Origin: Escherichia coli
Lineage (GTDB): Bacteria > Pseudomonadota > Gammaproteobacteria > Enterobacterales > Enterobacteriaceae
Assembly (NCBI RefSeq): GCF_050920415.1
Contig: NZ_CP169309.1
Strand: one strand, 5' to 3'
Length of the DNA stretch: 64,000 nucleotides
Below are positions 2,576 through 28,993 of the stretch, piece by piece. Both the position numbers and the translations under genes were made by a program. How positions within the stretch are numbered: the stretch's first letter is position 1; every line of letters starts with the position of its first letter. Below the pieces are notes generated by a model. It was not told the origin of the DNA and did not search any database. It saw only the letters and a list, made by a program, of their open reading frames with translations.

Positions 2576-3254
2576 GGCGCTGCTGACAGTGGTCTGTATG
2601 CTGGCGGCACCTTTGACACAGGCGATTTCGGTCGGCAATCTGACATTTTCGCTGCCGTCCGAGACTGACTTTGTCAGCAAACGTGTAGTGAATAACAACA
2701 AAAGCGCACGGATATACCGTATTGCCATCAGTGCCATCGATAGCCCAGGCAGCAGTGAATTGCGCACTCGACCGGTGGATGGTGAACTGCTTTTCGCTCC
2801 CCGCCAGCTGGCGTTGCAGGCTGGTGAGAGTGAGTATTTTAAATTTTACTATCATGGCCCCCAGGATAAACGCGAGCGCTACTACCGGGTCTCATTCCGC
2901 GAGGTCCCCACTCGCAACCAGACAAGACGTAGCCCAACCGGCGGCGAGGTCAGCACAGAGCCGGTGGTGGTGATGGATACCATTCTGGTAGTACGACCAC
3001 GTCAGGTTCAGTTTAAATGGTCCTTCGACCAGGTGACAGGAACGGTAAGTAACACCGGCAACACGTGGTTTAAGCTACTGATTAAACCAGGATGTGATTC
3101 GACCGAAGAGGAAGGCGACGCCTGGTACCTACGTCCAGGGGACGTGGTTCATCAGCCTGCGTTACGTCAACCGGGGAATCATTATCTGGTCTATAACGAC
3201 AAATTCATTAAGATTAGCGATTCCTGTCCGGCTAAGCCCCCTTCGGCGGACTAA
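2544..3254 (+). CDS. ecpE: Ecp pilus periplasmic chaperone
   Basis: Start taken at internal Met ([14 protein letters not shown]..., signal peptide), giving 236 aa as for YagV/EcpE; overlaps ecpD 3-prime end. Confidence 0.75.
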
Positions 3255-3567
3255 GACTTATCCATCGGACGAGGGAAGAATTCCACCTCAGAGACTCAAA
3301 TAATCGTTTAAATGATGTGGAAGCGATCGTCAATGTCACCTGTAATGATGGGCTTTCTCATATGTACACCATAGTGTTCAGGAGACACGGAAAGGTGCCA
3401 GGCAGCCTGCTAACGAGTGGTTTCTTCACGAATTAGTACGTAAAATCGGTAACGGCTGGAAATCATTCAATACTCACACTATCGAAAGTTCCCCAGCCAA
3501 CCGCGGTACGTTCTTACATACGAGGTACCGCTGTTCTCTTTACGATTTATAGCTGTACTGGTGAATT

Positions 3568-3897
3568 ATGAGCAATCTGAATCCATGCATGACGTGTGGT
3601 GCCTGTTGTGCATTTTTCCGCGTCTCTTTTTACTGGGCCGAAGCCGACGATGCTGGCGGTACCATTCCCGCCAGGCTCACTGAACAAATATCCCCTTTTC
3701 ACCGATGCATGAGCGGTACCAATCAGAAAAACCCCCGATGTATTGCCCTTGCAGGAACACCGGGCAAAAATGCCTGCTGCACGATATATAAAAATCGATC
3801 GTCCACGTGCAGAGAATTCGCCATGTCTGGTGAGAACGGAGTCGTCAATGAGGCTTGCAATCGTGCAAGAGCTAAATACGGGCTGACACCGTTATAA
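3568..3897 (+). CDS. ykgJ: Cys-rich YkgJ-family protein
   Basis: 109 aa, CxxCxxCC near the N-terminus; synteny ecpE-ykgJ-yagU-pao as in E. coli. Confidence 0.7.
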
Positions 3898-3920
3898 ATA
3901 TGCAATAATTAATTGCACTG

Positions 3921-3954
3921 CCCCGCCAGCTATAATCGCGGGGCTTCGTTTTTC
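3921..3954 (+). terminator. Rho-independent terminator downstream of ykgJ
   Basis: ccccgc...gcgggg stem followed by cttcgttttt. Confidence 0.5.
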
Positions 3955-4104
3955 AGGGATAACAAAACCCGAGACTTCTTCCATCTGCCAGCAACAATGC
4001 CTCTTCCTCTACAGTGTTCTCCGGATCTACAGCATCCTGAAGTAGCGCGATGTACTCACTGGCTATCTGCATCAGAAAGTTAAAAACAATGTTTTTAACC
4101 TATA

Positions 4105-4133
4105 AAAATGGCGCTGTATTTGCGCCATTTTTA
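4105..4133 (-). terminator. Hairpin terminator downstream of yagU (possibly bidirectional)
   Basis: aatggcgc / gcgccatt stem flanked by A-run and T-run. Confidence 0.45.
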
Positions 4134-4145
4134 TCATTCAATGCA

Positions 4146-4760
4146 TTATCTGTTTGAGCCTAAAGGGATCTCAGGGTCTGGCTCATGAGTAATTCTGTTT
4201 CGTAAATCTCTGCGAATAATTTCAATGGACCAGAACCAGACTAAATGTCCAAAAATTTCAGAAACATTCTCATACCACGGGAGATCAAACAGAGGTGGCG
4301 TCAGTCCCATGAGAGGGAATGAAATCATATGAACAAAAAGTTGGGCTAAAGCACCTGCCAGTAAGCCCTGCCAGAGTTTAATTTTTGGAAATACTTCAGC
4401 GACCACACAATAACCGACAGCAAACACTATCGAAAAGATAATGTGCGTAACACCAACCCAGTTAAAGACATGCCCGGCAAAGGTATAAACAGCCGCATTG
4501 GGATCTGTCAGCCCCAGCCAGTCTCGAAGAAAAATATACGGAGGATTGAGAAAATTACGGGAGCAATCAATTTGCCCAGCAGCCCTGATTAATGATTCCG
4601 GGCCACACGCTGCATTAAACATATCCACCGGGCTACGTGGCGGCAATGGAACTTCTGCCCCCCACTTCACAAATGCGGAAACAACGCCAGCAATCAGCCC
4701 AATGAATGCAGCAAGACCATAACGTCTGCGGTTCGGTGGAGTTTGTTCAAATATATTCAT
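4146..4760 (-). CDS. yagU: Inner-membrane protein, DUF1440 family
   Basis: 204 aa, several hydrophobic helices; size and synteny match YagU. Confidence 0.75.
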
Positions 4761-23077: not shown

Positions 23078-24535
23078 GTGTCTGAACTGTCTCAATTATC
23101 TCCACAGCCGCTGTGGGATATTTTTGCCAAAATCTGTTCTATTCCTCACCCGTCCTATCATGAAGAGCAACTCGCTGAATACATTGTTGGTTGGGCAAAA
23201 GAGAAAGGTTTCCATGTCGAACGCGATCAGGTGGGTAATATCCTGATTCGTAAACCTGCTACCGCAGGTATGGAAAATCGTAAACCAGTCGTCTTGCAGG
23301 CCCACCTCGATATGGTGCCGCAGAAAAATAACGATACCGTGCACGATTTCACTAAAGATCCTATCCAGCCTTATATTGATGGCGAATGGGTTAAAGCGCG
23401 CGGTACCACGCTGGGCGCGGATAACGGCATTGGTATGGCCTCTGCACTGGCGGTTCTGGCTGACGAAAACGTGGTTCACGGCCCGCTGGAAGTGCTGCTA
23501 ACCATGACCGAAGAAGCCGGTATGGACGGGGCGTTCGGCTTACAGAGCAACTGGTTGCAGGCTGACATTCTGATTAACACCGACTCCGAAGAAGAAGGTG
23601 AAATCTACATGGGTTGTGCTGGGGGGATCGACTTCACCTCCAACCTGCATTTAGATCGTGAAGCCGTTCCGGCTGGTTTTGAAACCTTCAAATTAACCTT
23701 AAAAGGTCTGAAAGGCGGTCACTCCGGCGGTGAAATCCACGTTGGCCTGGGTAACGCGAACAAACTGCTGGTGCGCTTCCTGGCGGGACATGCAGAAGAA
23801 CTGGACCTGCGTCTTATCGATTTCAACGGCGGCACACTGCGTAACGCCATCCCGCGTGAAGCCTTTGCGACCATTGCTGTCGCAGCTGATAAAGTCGACG
23901 CGCTGAAAACGCTGGTGAATACCTATCAGGACATCCTGAAAAACGAGCTGGCAGAGAAAGAGAAAAATCTGGCCTTGTTGCTGGACTCTGTTGCGAACGA
24001 TAAAGCTGCCCTGATTGCGAAATCTCGCGATACCTTTATTCGTCTGTTGAACGCCACCCCTAACGGTGTGATCCGCAACTCCGACGTAGCAAAAGGCGTG
24101 GTTGAAACCTCACTGAACGTCGGTGTCGTGACCATGACCGACAACAACGTAGAAATTCACTGCCTGATCCGTTCTCTGATCGACAGCGGTAAAGACTACG
24201 TGGTGAGCATGCTGGATTCGCTGGGTAAACTGGCAGGCGCGAAAACAGAAGCGAAAGGCGCATATCCTGGCTGGCAGCCGGACGCTAACTCCCCGGTGAT
24301 GCATCTGGTACGCGAAACCTATCAGCGTCTGTTCAACAAGACGCCGAACATCCAGATTATCCACGCGGGTCTGGAATGTGGTCTGTTTAAAAAGCCGTAT
24401 CCGGAAATGGACATGGTTTCTATCGGGCCAACCATTACCGGTCCACACTCTCCGGATGAGCAAGTTCACATCGAAAGCGTAGGCCATTACTGGACACTGC
24501 TGACTGAACTGCTGAAAGAAATTCCGGCGAAGTAA
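23078..24535 (+). CDS. pepD: Cytosol non-specific dipeptidase (aminoacyl-histidine dipeptidase)
   Basis: 485 aa, recognisable PepD sequence. Confidence 0.95.
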   Translation: MSELSQLSPQPLWDIFAKICSIPHPSYHEEQLAEYIVGWAKEKGFHVERDQVGNILIRKPATAGMENRKPVVLQAHLDMVPQKNNDTVHDFTKDPIQPYIDGEWVKARGTTLGADNGIGMASALAVLADENVVHGPLEVLLTMTEEAGMDGAFGLQSNWLQADILINTDSEEEGEIYMGCAGGIDFTSNLHLDREAVPAGFETFKLTLKGLKGGHSGGEIHVGLGNANKLLVRFLAGHAEELDLRLIDFNGGTLRNAIPREAFATIAVAADKVDALKTLVNTYQDILKNELAEKEKNLALLLDSVANDKAALIAKSRDTFIRLLNATPNGVIRNSDVAKGVVETSLNVGVVTMTDNNVEIHCLIRSLIDSGKDYVVSMLDSLGKLAGAKTEAKGAYPGWQPDANSPVMHLVRETYQRLFNKTPNIQIIHAGLECGLFKKPYPEMDMVSIGPTITGPHSPDEQVHIESVGHYWTLLTELLKEIPAK

Positions 24536-24545
24536 TTACAATAAT

Positions 24546-24575
24546 GTCCACGCCTGCGGGCGTGGACTACTGTTT
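24546..24575 (+). terminator. Rho-independent terminator of pepD
   Basis: 9-bp stem gtccacgcc / ggcgtggac with a 4-nt loop, then a T-containing tail. Confidence 0.55.
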
Positions 24576-24833
24576 GAAGCCAATGGCTATCTATATCGAA
24601 ATAACAAAACATTATGAAACTCATGAAAAGGTCGCATATTTATATAGCTGCGACCATATTTCATGGGGAGAATTTCTGATCACCAAAGAAAGTTTTGCGC
24701 TGGAATCCGTGAAAGAACTTAAGGGTGAAAAGCAGAATTTTTATATGTTCAGAGCCTGGGGCAAAGTCAGGAAAACATACTTAGCCACGGGAGAATTTCC
24801 CCTGGAAACATGTTACGCCGCTTAAAGTCAGAA

Positions 24834-25373
24834 TCATTTTTTCACGCGTTTTACATTTACCATTTTAGCATTACGCCTGCACCACATAGCAATGGCGGCA
24901 GCTACTAATGCCAGTTCCAGTAAAAAAGACCAGTGTAATAAAAAATTGAGCCACCACGGATGATGTACCGCTGTAATATGAAAGAATGCAAATGGCTGGT
25001 TAACGAAAGGCATCAACCACCAGATATCACCGACCAGCGTATCGAGTAATAAATGCGCGATACTATTCAGGCAAAACACCACGCCCAACCACGCCGGAAG
25101 TTTATTCTTCGCAATTGCGGCCCAGACTAATGTCGCCGCCAGCAGAGCAAACCATAATAATGGCCAATGAGACGGGTAAAGATGATGATGTCGTTGCCCG
25201 TTATCCACCAGATAACACCAGAAGAGATCAAAATCGGGTGCAACGGCCCCGACTAAGCCAATAACCATCGCCCACCGCGCATGACGAGAAATCAGCGGTA
25301 GGCGTTTCACTAAAGTACAAGTTATTAAATATCCAGCCGGAAGATGACCGATAAACATGACGAATCCTTTCAT
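24834..25373 (-). CDS. Integral membrane protein, possibly YdjM-like metal-dependent hydrolase
   Basis: 179 aa, several TM helices and His-rich segments; no K-12 counterpart at this position that I recall. Confidence 0.55.
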   Translation of the reverse strand: MKGFVMFIGHLPAGYLITCTLVKRLPLISRHARWAMVIGLVGAVAPDFDLFWCYLVDNGQRHHHLYPSHWPLLWFALLAATLVWAAIAKNKLPAWLGVVFCLNSIAHLLLDTLVGDIWWLMPFVNQPFAFFHITAVHHPWWLNFLLHWSFLLELALVAAAIAMWCRRNAKMVNVKRVKK

Positions 25374-25420
25374 TTTTGCCCGCCGCTTTCACGAAGAAAA
25401 CGGCGGGTGACATTCCTCAA

Positions 25421-26035
25421 TTACACAGCGATAAAAGCCATCCCTGTAAACGTCCGTCGCGGGTTGCCACGTTCAATCTGGTGATGGAACATTCGCCGCT
25501 GCGATTTCAGCGCCGCGCTATTTTCCTGTCGCTGTTGTTCCAGCTTCCAGGCAATCAGTAATCGCGCCAGCCGTTTGTTAGCATGCTGACTGCGCTCTGA
25601 CTGAACCTTCACCCTAATACCGGATGCCAGATGCGTGGCGCGCACAGCCGAGTCGGTTTTATTGACATGTTGACCGCCCGGCCCCGACGAACGCAGCGTC
25701 TCATAATGGATCGCATCGGATTGCTCCTGCTCATCTGCAGTAAAACGCCCAATGCCCAGAAACCAGTTTTTGCGCCCATGATGAGGGCGATACGGACTCG
25801 GACAAATCCACTGGATAGTGCCACACCAGCTTTCGCTTAGTGCCCATGCGTTGTCGCCATCAAGTGAAACCAGCGCCGAACGTAGTGTGTCAGAGTAGCG
25901 ACCCGTTTCTGTTTCCAGCACCGTTACCGCGACGTCTTGTCGGGCAGCTTCTTTAATCAGCCTGTCCAGTGCCTTTTTCACTGCGAGACAACATTCTTCC
26001 GGTCCCTGAGCTGAGGAGAGTTGTAGCAAGATCAT
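25421..26035 (-). CDS. prfH: Peptide chain release factor homolog PrfH (full length)
   Basis: GGQ motif ([16 protein letters not shown]); start at internal ATG (MILLQLSS...) gives about 204 aa; start overlaps the rtcB stop by 4 bp. Confidence 0.85.
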
Positions 26036-27488: not shown

Positions 27489-27941
27489 TTAGTGTTGCGG
27501 TTTATATCGCATATGAAAATTAGTAAACCACGCTCCCCGGCATTCAACGCGCTGCTGCTTAACTGTCTGAAAACCATAACGTTCAAAAAAGGGTTTTGCG
27601 GTTATGCTGGCGTCCACCGTAAGTTCGGATTCAGACTTAATCAAAGGTTTTAACAAAGCGCTGGCAACCCCACGGCGGGTATATTCAGGGTCAACAAATA
27701 ACATATCGATATAATGTTCAATGCGGGAAATAAAACCAACCGGTTGTGCATTAATCACAGCAACCCGCACTTGTGATTTCGCGAGTTTCTCTTTCCATCG
27801 ATGTTCATCAATCTGCGCCCAGGCGGCAATTTGTTGTGGTGAATAATGCTGACTGGCGGTCATCGTAACCGCTCTAATAAAAATAGCGCATAGTTGCTGA
27901 AAATCGCCAGGCTGATAGTCTCTTATTTGTATATTATTCAT
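27489..27941 (-). CDS. yafP: GNAT-family N-acetyltransferase
   Basis: 150 aa; start overlaps the dinB stop. Confidence 0.85.
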
Positions 27942-28993
27942 AATCCCAACACCAGTTGTCTTTCCATTTGCGGATCCAGCAACGTCACATGCAGCCCCAC
28001 CAGCCGCACACCGCGCCCGCCACGGCGTTCATCCCAGGTTTTACGCGCAGTGGCGATCAAGTCAGCTTTATTCAGCCGCGGCCAGACGTGTTCCTGAGTG
28101 GTTTGCTGAAAATCGTCGAACTTTAATTTCACCCCCTGGCGGGCAATCAGCAAATCAGGTTTTACCTTTGCCAGACGGCGTTCAAGTTCCGGATACAACC
28201 GCTCGATAATCGCTTCACATTCAGACCAATGATGAATATCTTCCGCCATCGTGCGTTCCACACCAACGGATTTTCGCAACCTTTCGCTGTTAACGTCGCG
28301 CTCGTCAATGCCCTGGCTACGCTCCCACAAAATGCGGCCAAATTTGCCAAAGCGTTTAAGCAACGTCACCAGATCACACTTTTGTACATCGCCACAGGTT
28401 CGTAGCCCCATCGCTTCCAGTTTTGCCGCCGAGACTTTGCCGACACCGGGAATTTTTGCCAGCGGTAAGGTTTGCAGAAATGCCGGAACTTCTGCCGGCG
28501 TAATCACAAACTGACCGTTGGGTTTATTCATGTCTGAGGCGATTTTGGCGAGAAACTTGACCGGCGCAACGCCCGCAGACGCCGTCAGTTGCAGCTCGTT
28601 GAAGATCGTCTGGCGGATTTCCTGAGCGATAAGGGTCGCAGAGCCGTGGCAATGTACGCTGTCGGTGACGTCGAGATAAGCTTCATCCAGCGACAACGGC
28701 TCAATACGCGATGTGTAGCGAGAGAAGATTTCGCGGATATGATTTGACGCTTCTTTGTAGGCGTCAAAGCGCCCTGGAAGCAAGGTGAGATGCGGACACA
28801 GTTTGAGCGCCATGCCGGTTGGCATTGCGCTACGCACGCCAAATTTACGCGCGGGATAATTGGCGGTGCTGATCACCCCCCGGCGTTCGCGGCTGCCGCC
28901 AATAGCAATAGGGATATCGCGCAGGGCGGGATTGTCGCGCATCTCCACCGCGGCGAAAAAGCAGTCCATATCCACATGAATGATTTTACGCAT
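27938..28993 (-). CDS. dinB: DNA polymerase IV
   Basis: 351 aa, Y-family polymerase N-terminus ([22 protein letters not shown]...). Confidence 0.95.

Follow-up and report, generated by a model that had tools for sequence, protein, structure and literature searches.

A small open reading frame downstream of pepD in Escherichia coli is most likely an orphan immunity gene of an uncurated polymorphic-toxin family

Background

Does the short stretch of DNA between pepD and a convergent membrane-protein gene of Escherichia coli hold a gene of its own and, if so, what would its product do? This question is raised by a 64,000-nucleotide stretch of contig NZ_CP169309.1 (RefSeq assembly GCF_050920415.1; hereafter called the window), in which a small open reading frame (ORF) follows pepD. 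A preliminary description, made from the letters of the DNA, had noted an ATG-initiated frame of about 81 amino acids (aa) behind the pepD terminator, in moderately AT-rich DNA and with neither a clear ribosome binding site (RBS) nor a recognisable motif, and had left it as a small protein gene or non-coding spacer. Here we report that, judged by its conservation, the small ORF is a genuine protein-coding gene, and that it most likely encodes an orphan immunity protein of an all-alpha toxin which, by analogy with known systems, would protect the cell against toxin delivered by a competitor.

Results

The small ORF is conserved as a protein-coding gene

The frame was found as marked, running from ATG 24583 to TAA 24823-24825 (243 nt, 80 codons plus stop). 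Its GC content is 39% (41% at third codon positions) compared to 52% for the window, which bears out the AT-richness described before. When the 298-nt intergenic segment was shuffled 20,000 times, only 108 rounds (~0.5%) produced an ATG-initiated ORF of at least 80 codons, and the small ORF thus exceeds chance expectation. A protein search yielded 22 homologues, including 80-aa forms in E. albertii and other E. coli and a Salmonella enterica protein (P0020) of 80 aa with 60% identity over 80 aa (E 3.5e-21). Conservation of the frame in related genomes, the check proposed in the preliminary description, was examined directly: the frame is intact in E. albertii, E. whittamii, other Escherichia and, at the same length, Salmonella. 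In a set of 5,426 complete E. coli genomes, 328 carry the ORF DNA, in single copy and always at the pepD locus, and it is full-length in all of these except one, in which it is interrupted by IS1. Pairwise Nei-Gojobori estimates of the ratio of nonsynonymous to synonymous substitution rates (dN/dS) are 0.08-0.17 for the window allele compared to divergent Escherichia alleles (dS 0.35-0.79) and 0.09-0.30 in the comparison with Salmonella. In E. coli isolate 648 (locus L029, 1162-2097), IS1 cuts the small ORF after ~60% of its length, and the insertion also deleted the hydrolase, prfH and rtcB genes of the locus.

To describe the family, a profile search was run over 1.84 billion representative proteins. 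It returned 60 cluster representatives, nearly all 77-84 aa long, with those aligned at about 78-82 aa, and matched end to end, with the consensus MAIYIxIxKxxE..V.Y.F....G...I.K..G.......RA..K......G.FP..TCWAS, and the window copy retains all of the nearly invariant residues M1, A2, K9, E12, Y19, G29 and P73. An AlphaFold2 (AF2) model built from the family alignment (pLDDT 96.2, pTM 0.84) predicts four beta-strands followed by a helix and a final strand (beta4-alpha-beta). Because the frame is conserved, dN/dS is low and the model is of high confidence, we regard the small ORF as a gene and not as spacer; of the two options that had been left side by side, only the former stands.

The family has no curated counterpart in the libraries searched, in agreement with the earlier remark that the ORF holds no recognisable motif. 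No match above threshold was obtained for the ORF in Pfam-A, NCBIfam, PADLOC or PHROGs, and none at E <= 0.01 when 57 family members were searched against Pfam. Sequence searches of the PDB gave nothing convincing, the best profile match being a 23-residue stretch of carbonic anhydrase and the remaining ones, including Lpg2149 at E 0.05, being weaker. Two other assignments were considered and dropped: an RNA gene, for which the Rfam scan of 24300-25100 gave just a sub-threshold match to a small nucleolar RNA, and a GNAT acetyltransferase fold, for which a complete GNAT domain with a strong structural match was not found.

Family members follow one toxin domain on varied delivery modules

The genomic context of the homologues points to a role for the family. 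In Salmonella locus L005, a 60%-identical homologue begins 10 nt past a gene that encodes an Rhs protein of 1,683 aa and has a DUF4123 protein gene before it; this Rhs protein carries the demarcation ...DPVGL...VDPLGL followed by a C-terminal toxin domain (CT) of ~140 aa, encoded at L005 5559-5987. In three further loci (L004, L006, L007), an orphan rhs fragment of 167 aa provides the CT and the 80-aa gene comes after it, and these modules sit in arrays of other orphan rhs-CT plus small-gene modules. Salmonella Toulon (L034) has a CT of 65% identity together with a family member behind VgrG, DUF2169 and PAAR-like genes. The deposited call of the L034 toxin gene (109 aa; 3206-4330) looks truncated, as the frame is open for ~370 codons upstream and begins just past the PAAR-like gene, which suggests that this toxin is a longer, VgrG/PAAR-associated cargo effector.

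The same arrangement extends to distant bacteria. Metagenome-assembled genomes of a Thiotrichaceae (L024) and a Cyclobacteriaceae (L023) bacterium encode family members with 31-34% identity (tblastn), whose genes overlap the stop codon of genes for 371-aa and 383-aa proteins, respectively. The last ~130 residues of both larger proteins are homologous to the Salmonella CT, with shared motifs TGARE, HTG, R[IV]KxHxF, RFDxDxEI, WxRLxxG, DIxLLNHExFESKFE and Y[RK]T[AS]H, and the Cyclobacteriaceae protein also carries the pre-toxin domain PT-TG (PF14449). The toxin domain is all-alpha and uncharacterised, with K65, H67, H74, H112, E113, E116 and E120 as invariant residues. At least 369 homologues were found, and many of these are short ORFs or gene fragments. 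They include PT-TG proteins, proteins of Salmonella and Xenorhabdus that are called Rhs by their source, and one of Paenibacillus that its source calls a 'WXG100 family type VII secretion target', besides proteins of other Bacillota, a Ralstonia protein and stand-alone cyanobacterial proteins of ~122 aa.

Four of these loci, from Xenorhabdus (L030), Paenibacillus (L031), Nostoc (L032) and Ralstonia (L033), were picked by toxin homology alone as a test of the linkage. The next gene encodes a 79-84-aa family member in all four (hmmsearch E 1e-20 to 1e-34). With phmmer, the window ORF itself matched the toxin-downstream genes at E 7e-30 to 4.5e-5, the Xenorhabdus gene matching the family profile only. 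In total, eight loci from seven genera and four phyla have a family member directly downstream of the toxin domain, as listed here.

Salmonella: L005 (Rhs protein), the L004-type orphan rhs module, and L034 (VgrG/DUF2169/PAAR-like cluster)
Metagenome-assembled genomes: L024 (Thiotrichaceae) and L023 (Cyclobacteriaceae)
Picked by toxin homology: L030 (Xenorhabdus), L031 (Paenibacillus), L032 (Nostoc) and L033 (Ralstonia)

Immunity genes of polymorphic toxins are recognised by a single toxin domain that occurs on swapped delivery scaffolds and is followed by the same small gene (Zhang et al. 2012, restated in PMC12994826). All three elements were found: family genes adjoin one toxin domain across taxa; this toxin is carried by an Rhs core, by PT-TG, by the VgrG/DUF2169/PAAR-like cluster, by the WXG100-named protein or stands alone; and the window ORF is significantly homologous to the toxin-adjacent proteins. 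Because one toxin domain on swapped scaffolds always precedes the same small gene, the family is assigned to the polymorphic-toxin immunity proteins, for which binding and neutralisation of the toxin are proposed by analogy with Rhs, contact-dependent growth inhibition (CDI) and type VI secretion system (T6SS) immunity. The toxin and immunity sequence motifs were not found in the supplements of a survey of Salmonella T6SS effectors (PMC12994826).

The window copy is probably an orphan

At the pepD locus, a cognate toxin gene immediately upstream was not found: the small ORF is preceded by pepD and a hairpin, and tblastn gave no match to the toxin domain within the 64-kb window. When Salmonella CT plus immunity DNA was compared to the 5,426 E. 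coli genomes by blastn in distant mode, the immunity part was matched at the pepD locus in 310 of them and the toxin part in none, MFDS1022581 included, in a DNA-level search that detects ~65-70% identity or more. As neither the window nor the position directly upstream holds a cognate toxin, the window copy is classed, at sequence level, as an orphan immunity gene whose toxin partner has no detectable match. Strain MFDS1022581, one of the genomes searched, is 100% identical to the window across the region searched.

Orphan members also occur elsewhere. One, in L016, is borne on a mobile element next to a SUKH_6-like gene; another, in L014, comes after a gene for a radical-SAM-like enzyme, as read from its CxxxCxxC motif. 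In the Ralstonia locus L033, the family member lies near the unrelated immunity-type gene Tis1_ImmP.

In E. albertii and a few E. coli (L008-L013), an extra gene lies between the hairpin and the small ORF.

L008 5450-5965 and L011 5458-5973: extra 171-aa gene, encoding a protein with two transmembrane segments (two-TM) and no family match

This gene was considered as the missing toxin, but its product, a membrane protein, shows no relation to the Rhs CT, and the idea was rejected; the gene may instead be an insertion or a further immunity-type gene. The window lacks it. So do three further loci (L020, L021, L022), and deletion of a toxin gene at this site therefore found no support.

Anatomy of the pepD locus and the likely start codon

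The gene order in the window is crl-frsA-gpt (minus strand), pepD (plus), the small ORF, a YdjM-family gene (minus), prfH and a gene for an RtcB-family ligase (minus), and yafP with dinB (minus). The position of the ORF, after a pepD terminator and before a convergent membrane-protein gene, is as previously described.

23078-24535, plus strand: pepD, upstream neighbour of the small ORF
24539-25400, no strand assigned: variable segment of ~860 bp (hairpin, small ORF and YdjM-like gene), from presence and absence in genomes
24544-24582, plus strand: in-frame 13-codon upstream extension, which yields a 93-aa gene model; probably not the native start
24546-24567, no strand assigned: G+C-rich hairpin GTCCACGCC-TGCG-GGCGTGGAC, from terminator scan and RNA fold
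24583-24825, plus strand: small ORF, 80 codons plus stop, putative orphan member of an uncurated polymorphic-toxin immunity family
24834-25373, minus strand: YdjM-family membrane protein (Pfam PF04307, E 7e-9), named 'metal-dependent hydrolase' by the Prokaryotic Genome Annotation Pipeline (PGAP)

The frame remains open upstream as far as ATG 24544, 8 nt past the pepD stop codon, and the RefSeq model made by PGAP (24544-24825, hypothetical protein WP_000106439.1) uses this start to give a protein of 93 aa. The upstream start is not conserved. E. coli SCPM-O-B-8794 (L022) has an in-frame TGA two codons ahead of the MAIY start, the upstream ATG of E. whittamii differs from 24544, and MAIY is where the protein begins in every homologue from outside this E. 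coli group, be it from E. albertii, Salmonella or a more distant bacterium; the gene of Salmonella L005 has a TTG start with an AAGGAG Shine-Dalgarno sequence 7 nt before it. Because ATG 24544 is unconserved and the homologues begin at MAIY, the conserved protein is most likely the 80-aa form starting at 24583, as originally marked, and not the 93-aa form. Re-initiation after pepD at 24544 may provide an alternative translation start.

The hairpin at 24546-24567 (9 bp, G+C-rich) lies 3' of pepD and is terminator-like on both strands, and every Escherichia locus compared has it. For the 71 nt that surround it, the folding energy is -23.8 kcal/mol (z = -3.7). The hairpin overlaps ATG 24544 with its stem and leaves just 15 nt to ATG 24583. 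The RNA fold additionally pairs AGCC (24578-24581) with GGCU (24585-24588), placing AUG 24583 inside a small 4-bp hairpin, and this weak structure could lower initiation further. LexA boxes (CTGT-N8-ACAG) were not found anywhere in the window.

In the YdjM-like gene, the window has a 7-nt insertion near the 3' end compared to other carriers (24834-24865), which alters the C-terminus from ...MVNA to ...MVNVKRVKK and leaves the convergent stop codons of this gene and the small ORF only 8 nt apart. The YdjM-like DNA shares ~94.6% identity with that of most other carriers, compared to 97.5-98.8% for the small ORF next to it, and this difference hints at a recombination breakpoint between the two. 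Farther on, dinB directly precedes yafP with a 4-nt overlap (window 27489-28993); in two other E. coli loci (L002 and L003), the yafN-yafO toxin-antitoxin pair lies between these genes, and it is absent from the window strain.

The ~860-bp segment is variable among E. coli genomes

The small ORF and the hydrolase gene are co-inherited, being present in 328 and 327, respectively, of the 5,426 complete E. coli genomes (~6%). In most E. coli genomes homology to the window ends 3 nt past the pepD stop codon, and in ATCC 8739-like strains the alignment shows ~60 bp of unrelated sequence in place of the segment. In ATCC 8739 itself (L003 4037-4100), these ~60 bp hold an inverted repeat, GCCGGATGGCG...CGCCTTCCGGC, resembling repetitive extragenic palindromic (REP) elements. 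A prfH pseudogene comes next, and beyond it an IS1 element and remnants of truncated yafO and rtcB mark repeated erosion of the interval. Because E. albertii and E. whittamii carry the same segment, it is probably ancestral in Escherichia and was lost from most E. coli. The low GC content of the ORF fits horizontally acquired DNA.

Discussion

In the explanation that we favour, the small ORF encodes a small cytoplasmic beta4-alpha-beta protein of an uncurated immunity family. In toxin producers, the immunity gene lies immediately downstream of the toxin-encoding 3' end, and the protein made from it would bind the toxin and block it, in the manner of Rhs, CDI and T6SS immunity proteins. The orphan copy would guard the cell when a competitor, for instance a Salmonella with the Rhs or VgrG-linked version, delivers the toxin. 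Translation most likely starts at 24583. As the 15 nt between hairpin and start leave no room for a promoter, the anatomy of the locus suggests that transcription would depend on read-through from pepD across the hairpin, and expression is therefore probably low.

A number of observations weigh against the favoured explanation, and several of them would be expected of a decaying relic, that is, a former immunity gene which is no longer expressed or useful and persists for want of time to be disrupted. The sequence upstream of ATG 24583, CTGTTTGAAGCCAATG, contains no usable Shine-Dalgarno sequence (the missing RBS of the preliminary description), a scan of 24300-25600 found no sigma-70-like promoter, and the strong hairpin 15 nt upstream makes expression doubtful. 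Frameshifted or IS1-truncated alleles occur (P0005 and P0018 among the homologues), and 94% of E. coli genomes lack the whole segment. Among E. coli carriers, 11 nonsynonymous compared to 5 synonymous polymorphisms were counted (pN/pS ~0.7), and 6 nonsynonymous but no synonymous changes separate the window from L002; in this small sample, recent constraint looks relaxed, or selection diversifying. The absence of the toxin from E. coli was judged by a DNA-level search, which a diverged toxin could escape. Identity to the Salmonella immunity proteins is ~59% and, because immunity proteins are usually allele-specific, cross-protection is uncertain; that the window protein neutralises the toxin and protects the cell is presumed by analogy. 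On the other hand, the frame is intact in 327 of the 328 carriers, all family-invariant residues are retained, and the low dN/dS values at dS 0.35-0.79 include the comparison of the toxin-less window with L022, so that purifying selection acted over the long term on a gene that already stood at this locus without a toxin. We therefore consider a relic unlikely, though by no means negligible.

Two other explanations deny that the ORF has to do with toxin immunity. It could be a partner of its local neighbours, the YdjM-like hydrolase and/or RtcB2-PrfH, given that ORF and hydrolase travel together on the ~860-bp segment and that rtcB2-prfH, which protects E. coli against colicin E3 (PMC9223846, PMC9304027), adjoins this segment. 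Outside Escherichia, however, the examined loci never pair the family with YdjM, RtcB or PrfH but with the toxin domain, the ORF is convergent with the hydrolase gene and not in an operon with it, and two papers on rtcB-prfH (PMC9223846, PMC1586002) make no mention of the hydrolase, pepD or ydjM; such a partnership appears very improbable. Still less credit is due to a chance ORF in spacer DNA, or in the 3' untranslated region of pepD or of the YdjM-like gene, that yields no protein. AT-rich DNA without RBS or curated family match would suit it, yet an ORF of this length is rare in the shuffles, homologues of the same length reach from Salmonella (60% identity) to other phyla (31-34%), purifying selection is strong, the AF2 model has a pLDDT of 96 and no Rfam family is matched, a pattern of conservation by which this explanation is effectively refuted.

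The orphan immunity gene may also be part of something larger. Its juxtaposition with rtcB2-prfH is suggestive of an anti-toxin defence islet, in which the pepD-dinB interval would combine an expressed orphan immunity gene against a widespread, structurally novel all-alpha toxin, RtcB2-PrfH as the pair that repairs ribosomes following colicin E3 attack, the YdjM-like protein and also the 171-aa two-TM protein of E. albertii as defences against competitor toxins, with the toxin/immunity pair as a new polymorphic toxin family. We put this forward as a speculative extension that is rather improbable in its full form.

Compared to known systems, the family most resembles the RhsI and T6SS immunity proteins, such as TriTu with the Salmonella Rhs1-TreTu toxin (PDB 7zhm) and the Rhs-CT/RhsI pairs of PMC3150448: the predicted product is a small cytoplasmic protein, the genes lie 0-60 nt past the toxin-encoding 3' end of rhs or other delivery genes, and toxin domain and small gene move as a unit, both from one delivery scaffold to another and among main and orphan rhs modules. 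The window copy is like the orphan cdiI/rhsI genes (PMC3150448) and the orphan rhs modules of Salmonella (PMC3967940) in being a toxin-less immunity homologue on a low-GC, strain-variable segment, and other orphans of the family lie, as in orphan and poly-immunity loci, beside unrelated immunity-type genes (SUKH_6, Tis1_ImmP). Unlike such loci, the window ORF is a single gene without an array, at a housekeeping pepD/prfH junction in E. coli, E. albertii and E. whittamii, outside any T6SS, rhs or CDI region. A likeness to type II toxin-antitoxin systems exists in Nostoc (L032 3001-3670), where a ~122-aa toxin gene without delivery domain is followed by a 79-aa family member, a two-gene layout that probably occurs in other cyanobacteria too. 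In contrast to type II antitoxins, the family pairs have the toxin gene first and the predicted fold is without DNA-binding features, while the fusion partners of the toxin (Rhs, PT-TG and the WXG100 type VII secretion family) suggest that it is exported.

Conclusions

The small ORF downstream of pepD thus most likely represents an ordinary kind of gene, an orphan polymorphic-toxin immunity gene, in an uncurated family with an uncharacterised partner toxin. As orphan immunity genes are already well known, the concept is unchanged and the practical impact is modest. The likely start codon of the PGAP model is corrected, giving a protein of 80 aa and not 93 aa. None of the libraries searched (Pfam, NCBIfam, PADLOC, PHROGs) holds the toxin/immunity pair, which is without a solved structural relative and is widespread, occurring in Proteobacteria, Bacillota, Bacteroidota and Cyanobacteria. 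For E. coli, a 'hypothetical protein' of hundreds of genomes becomes a testable prediction, namely that it would protect the cell against one Rhs- or T6SS-delivered toxin domain.
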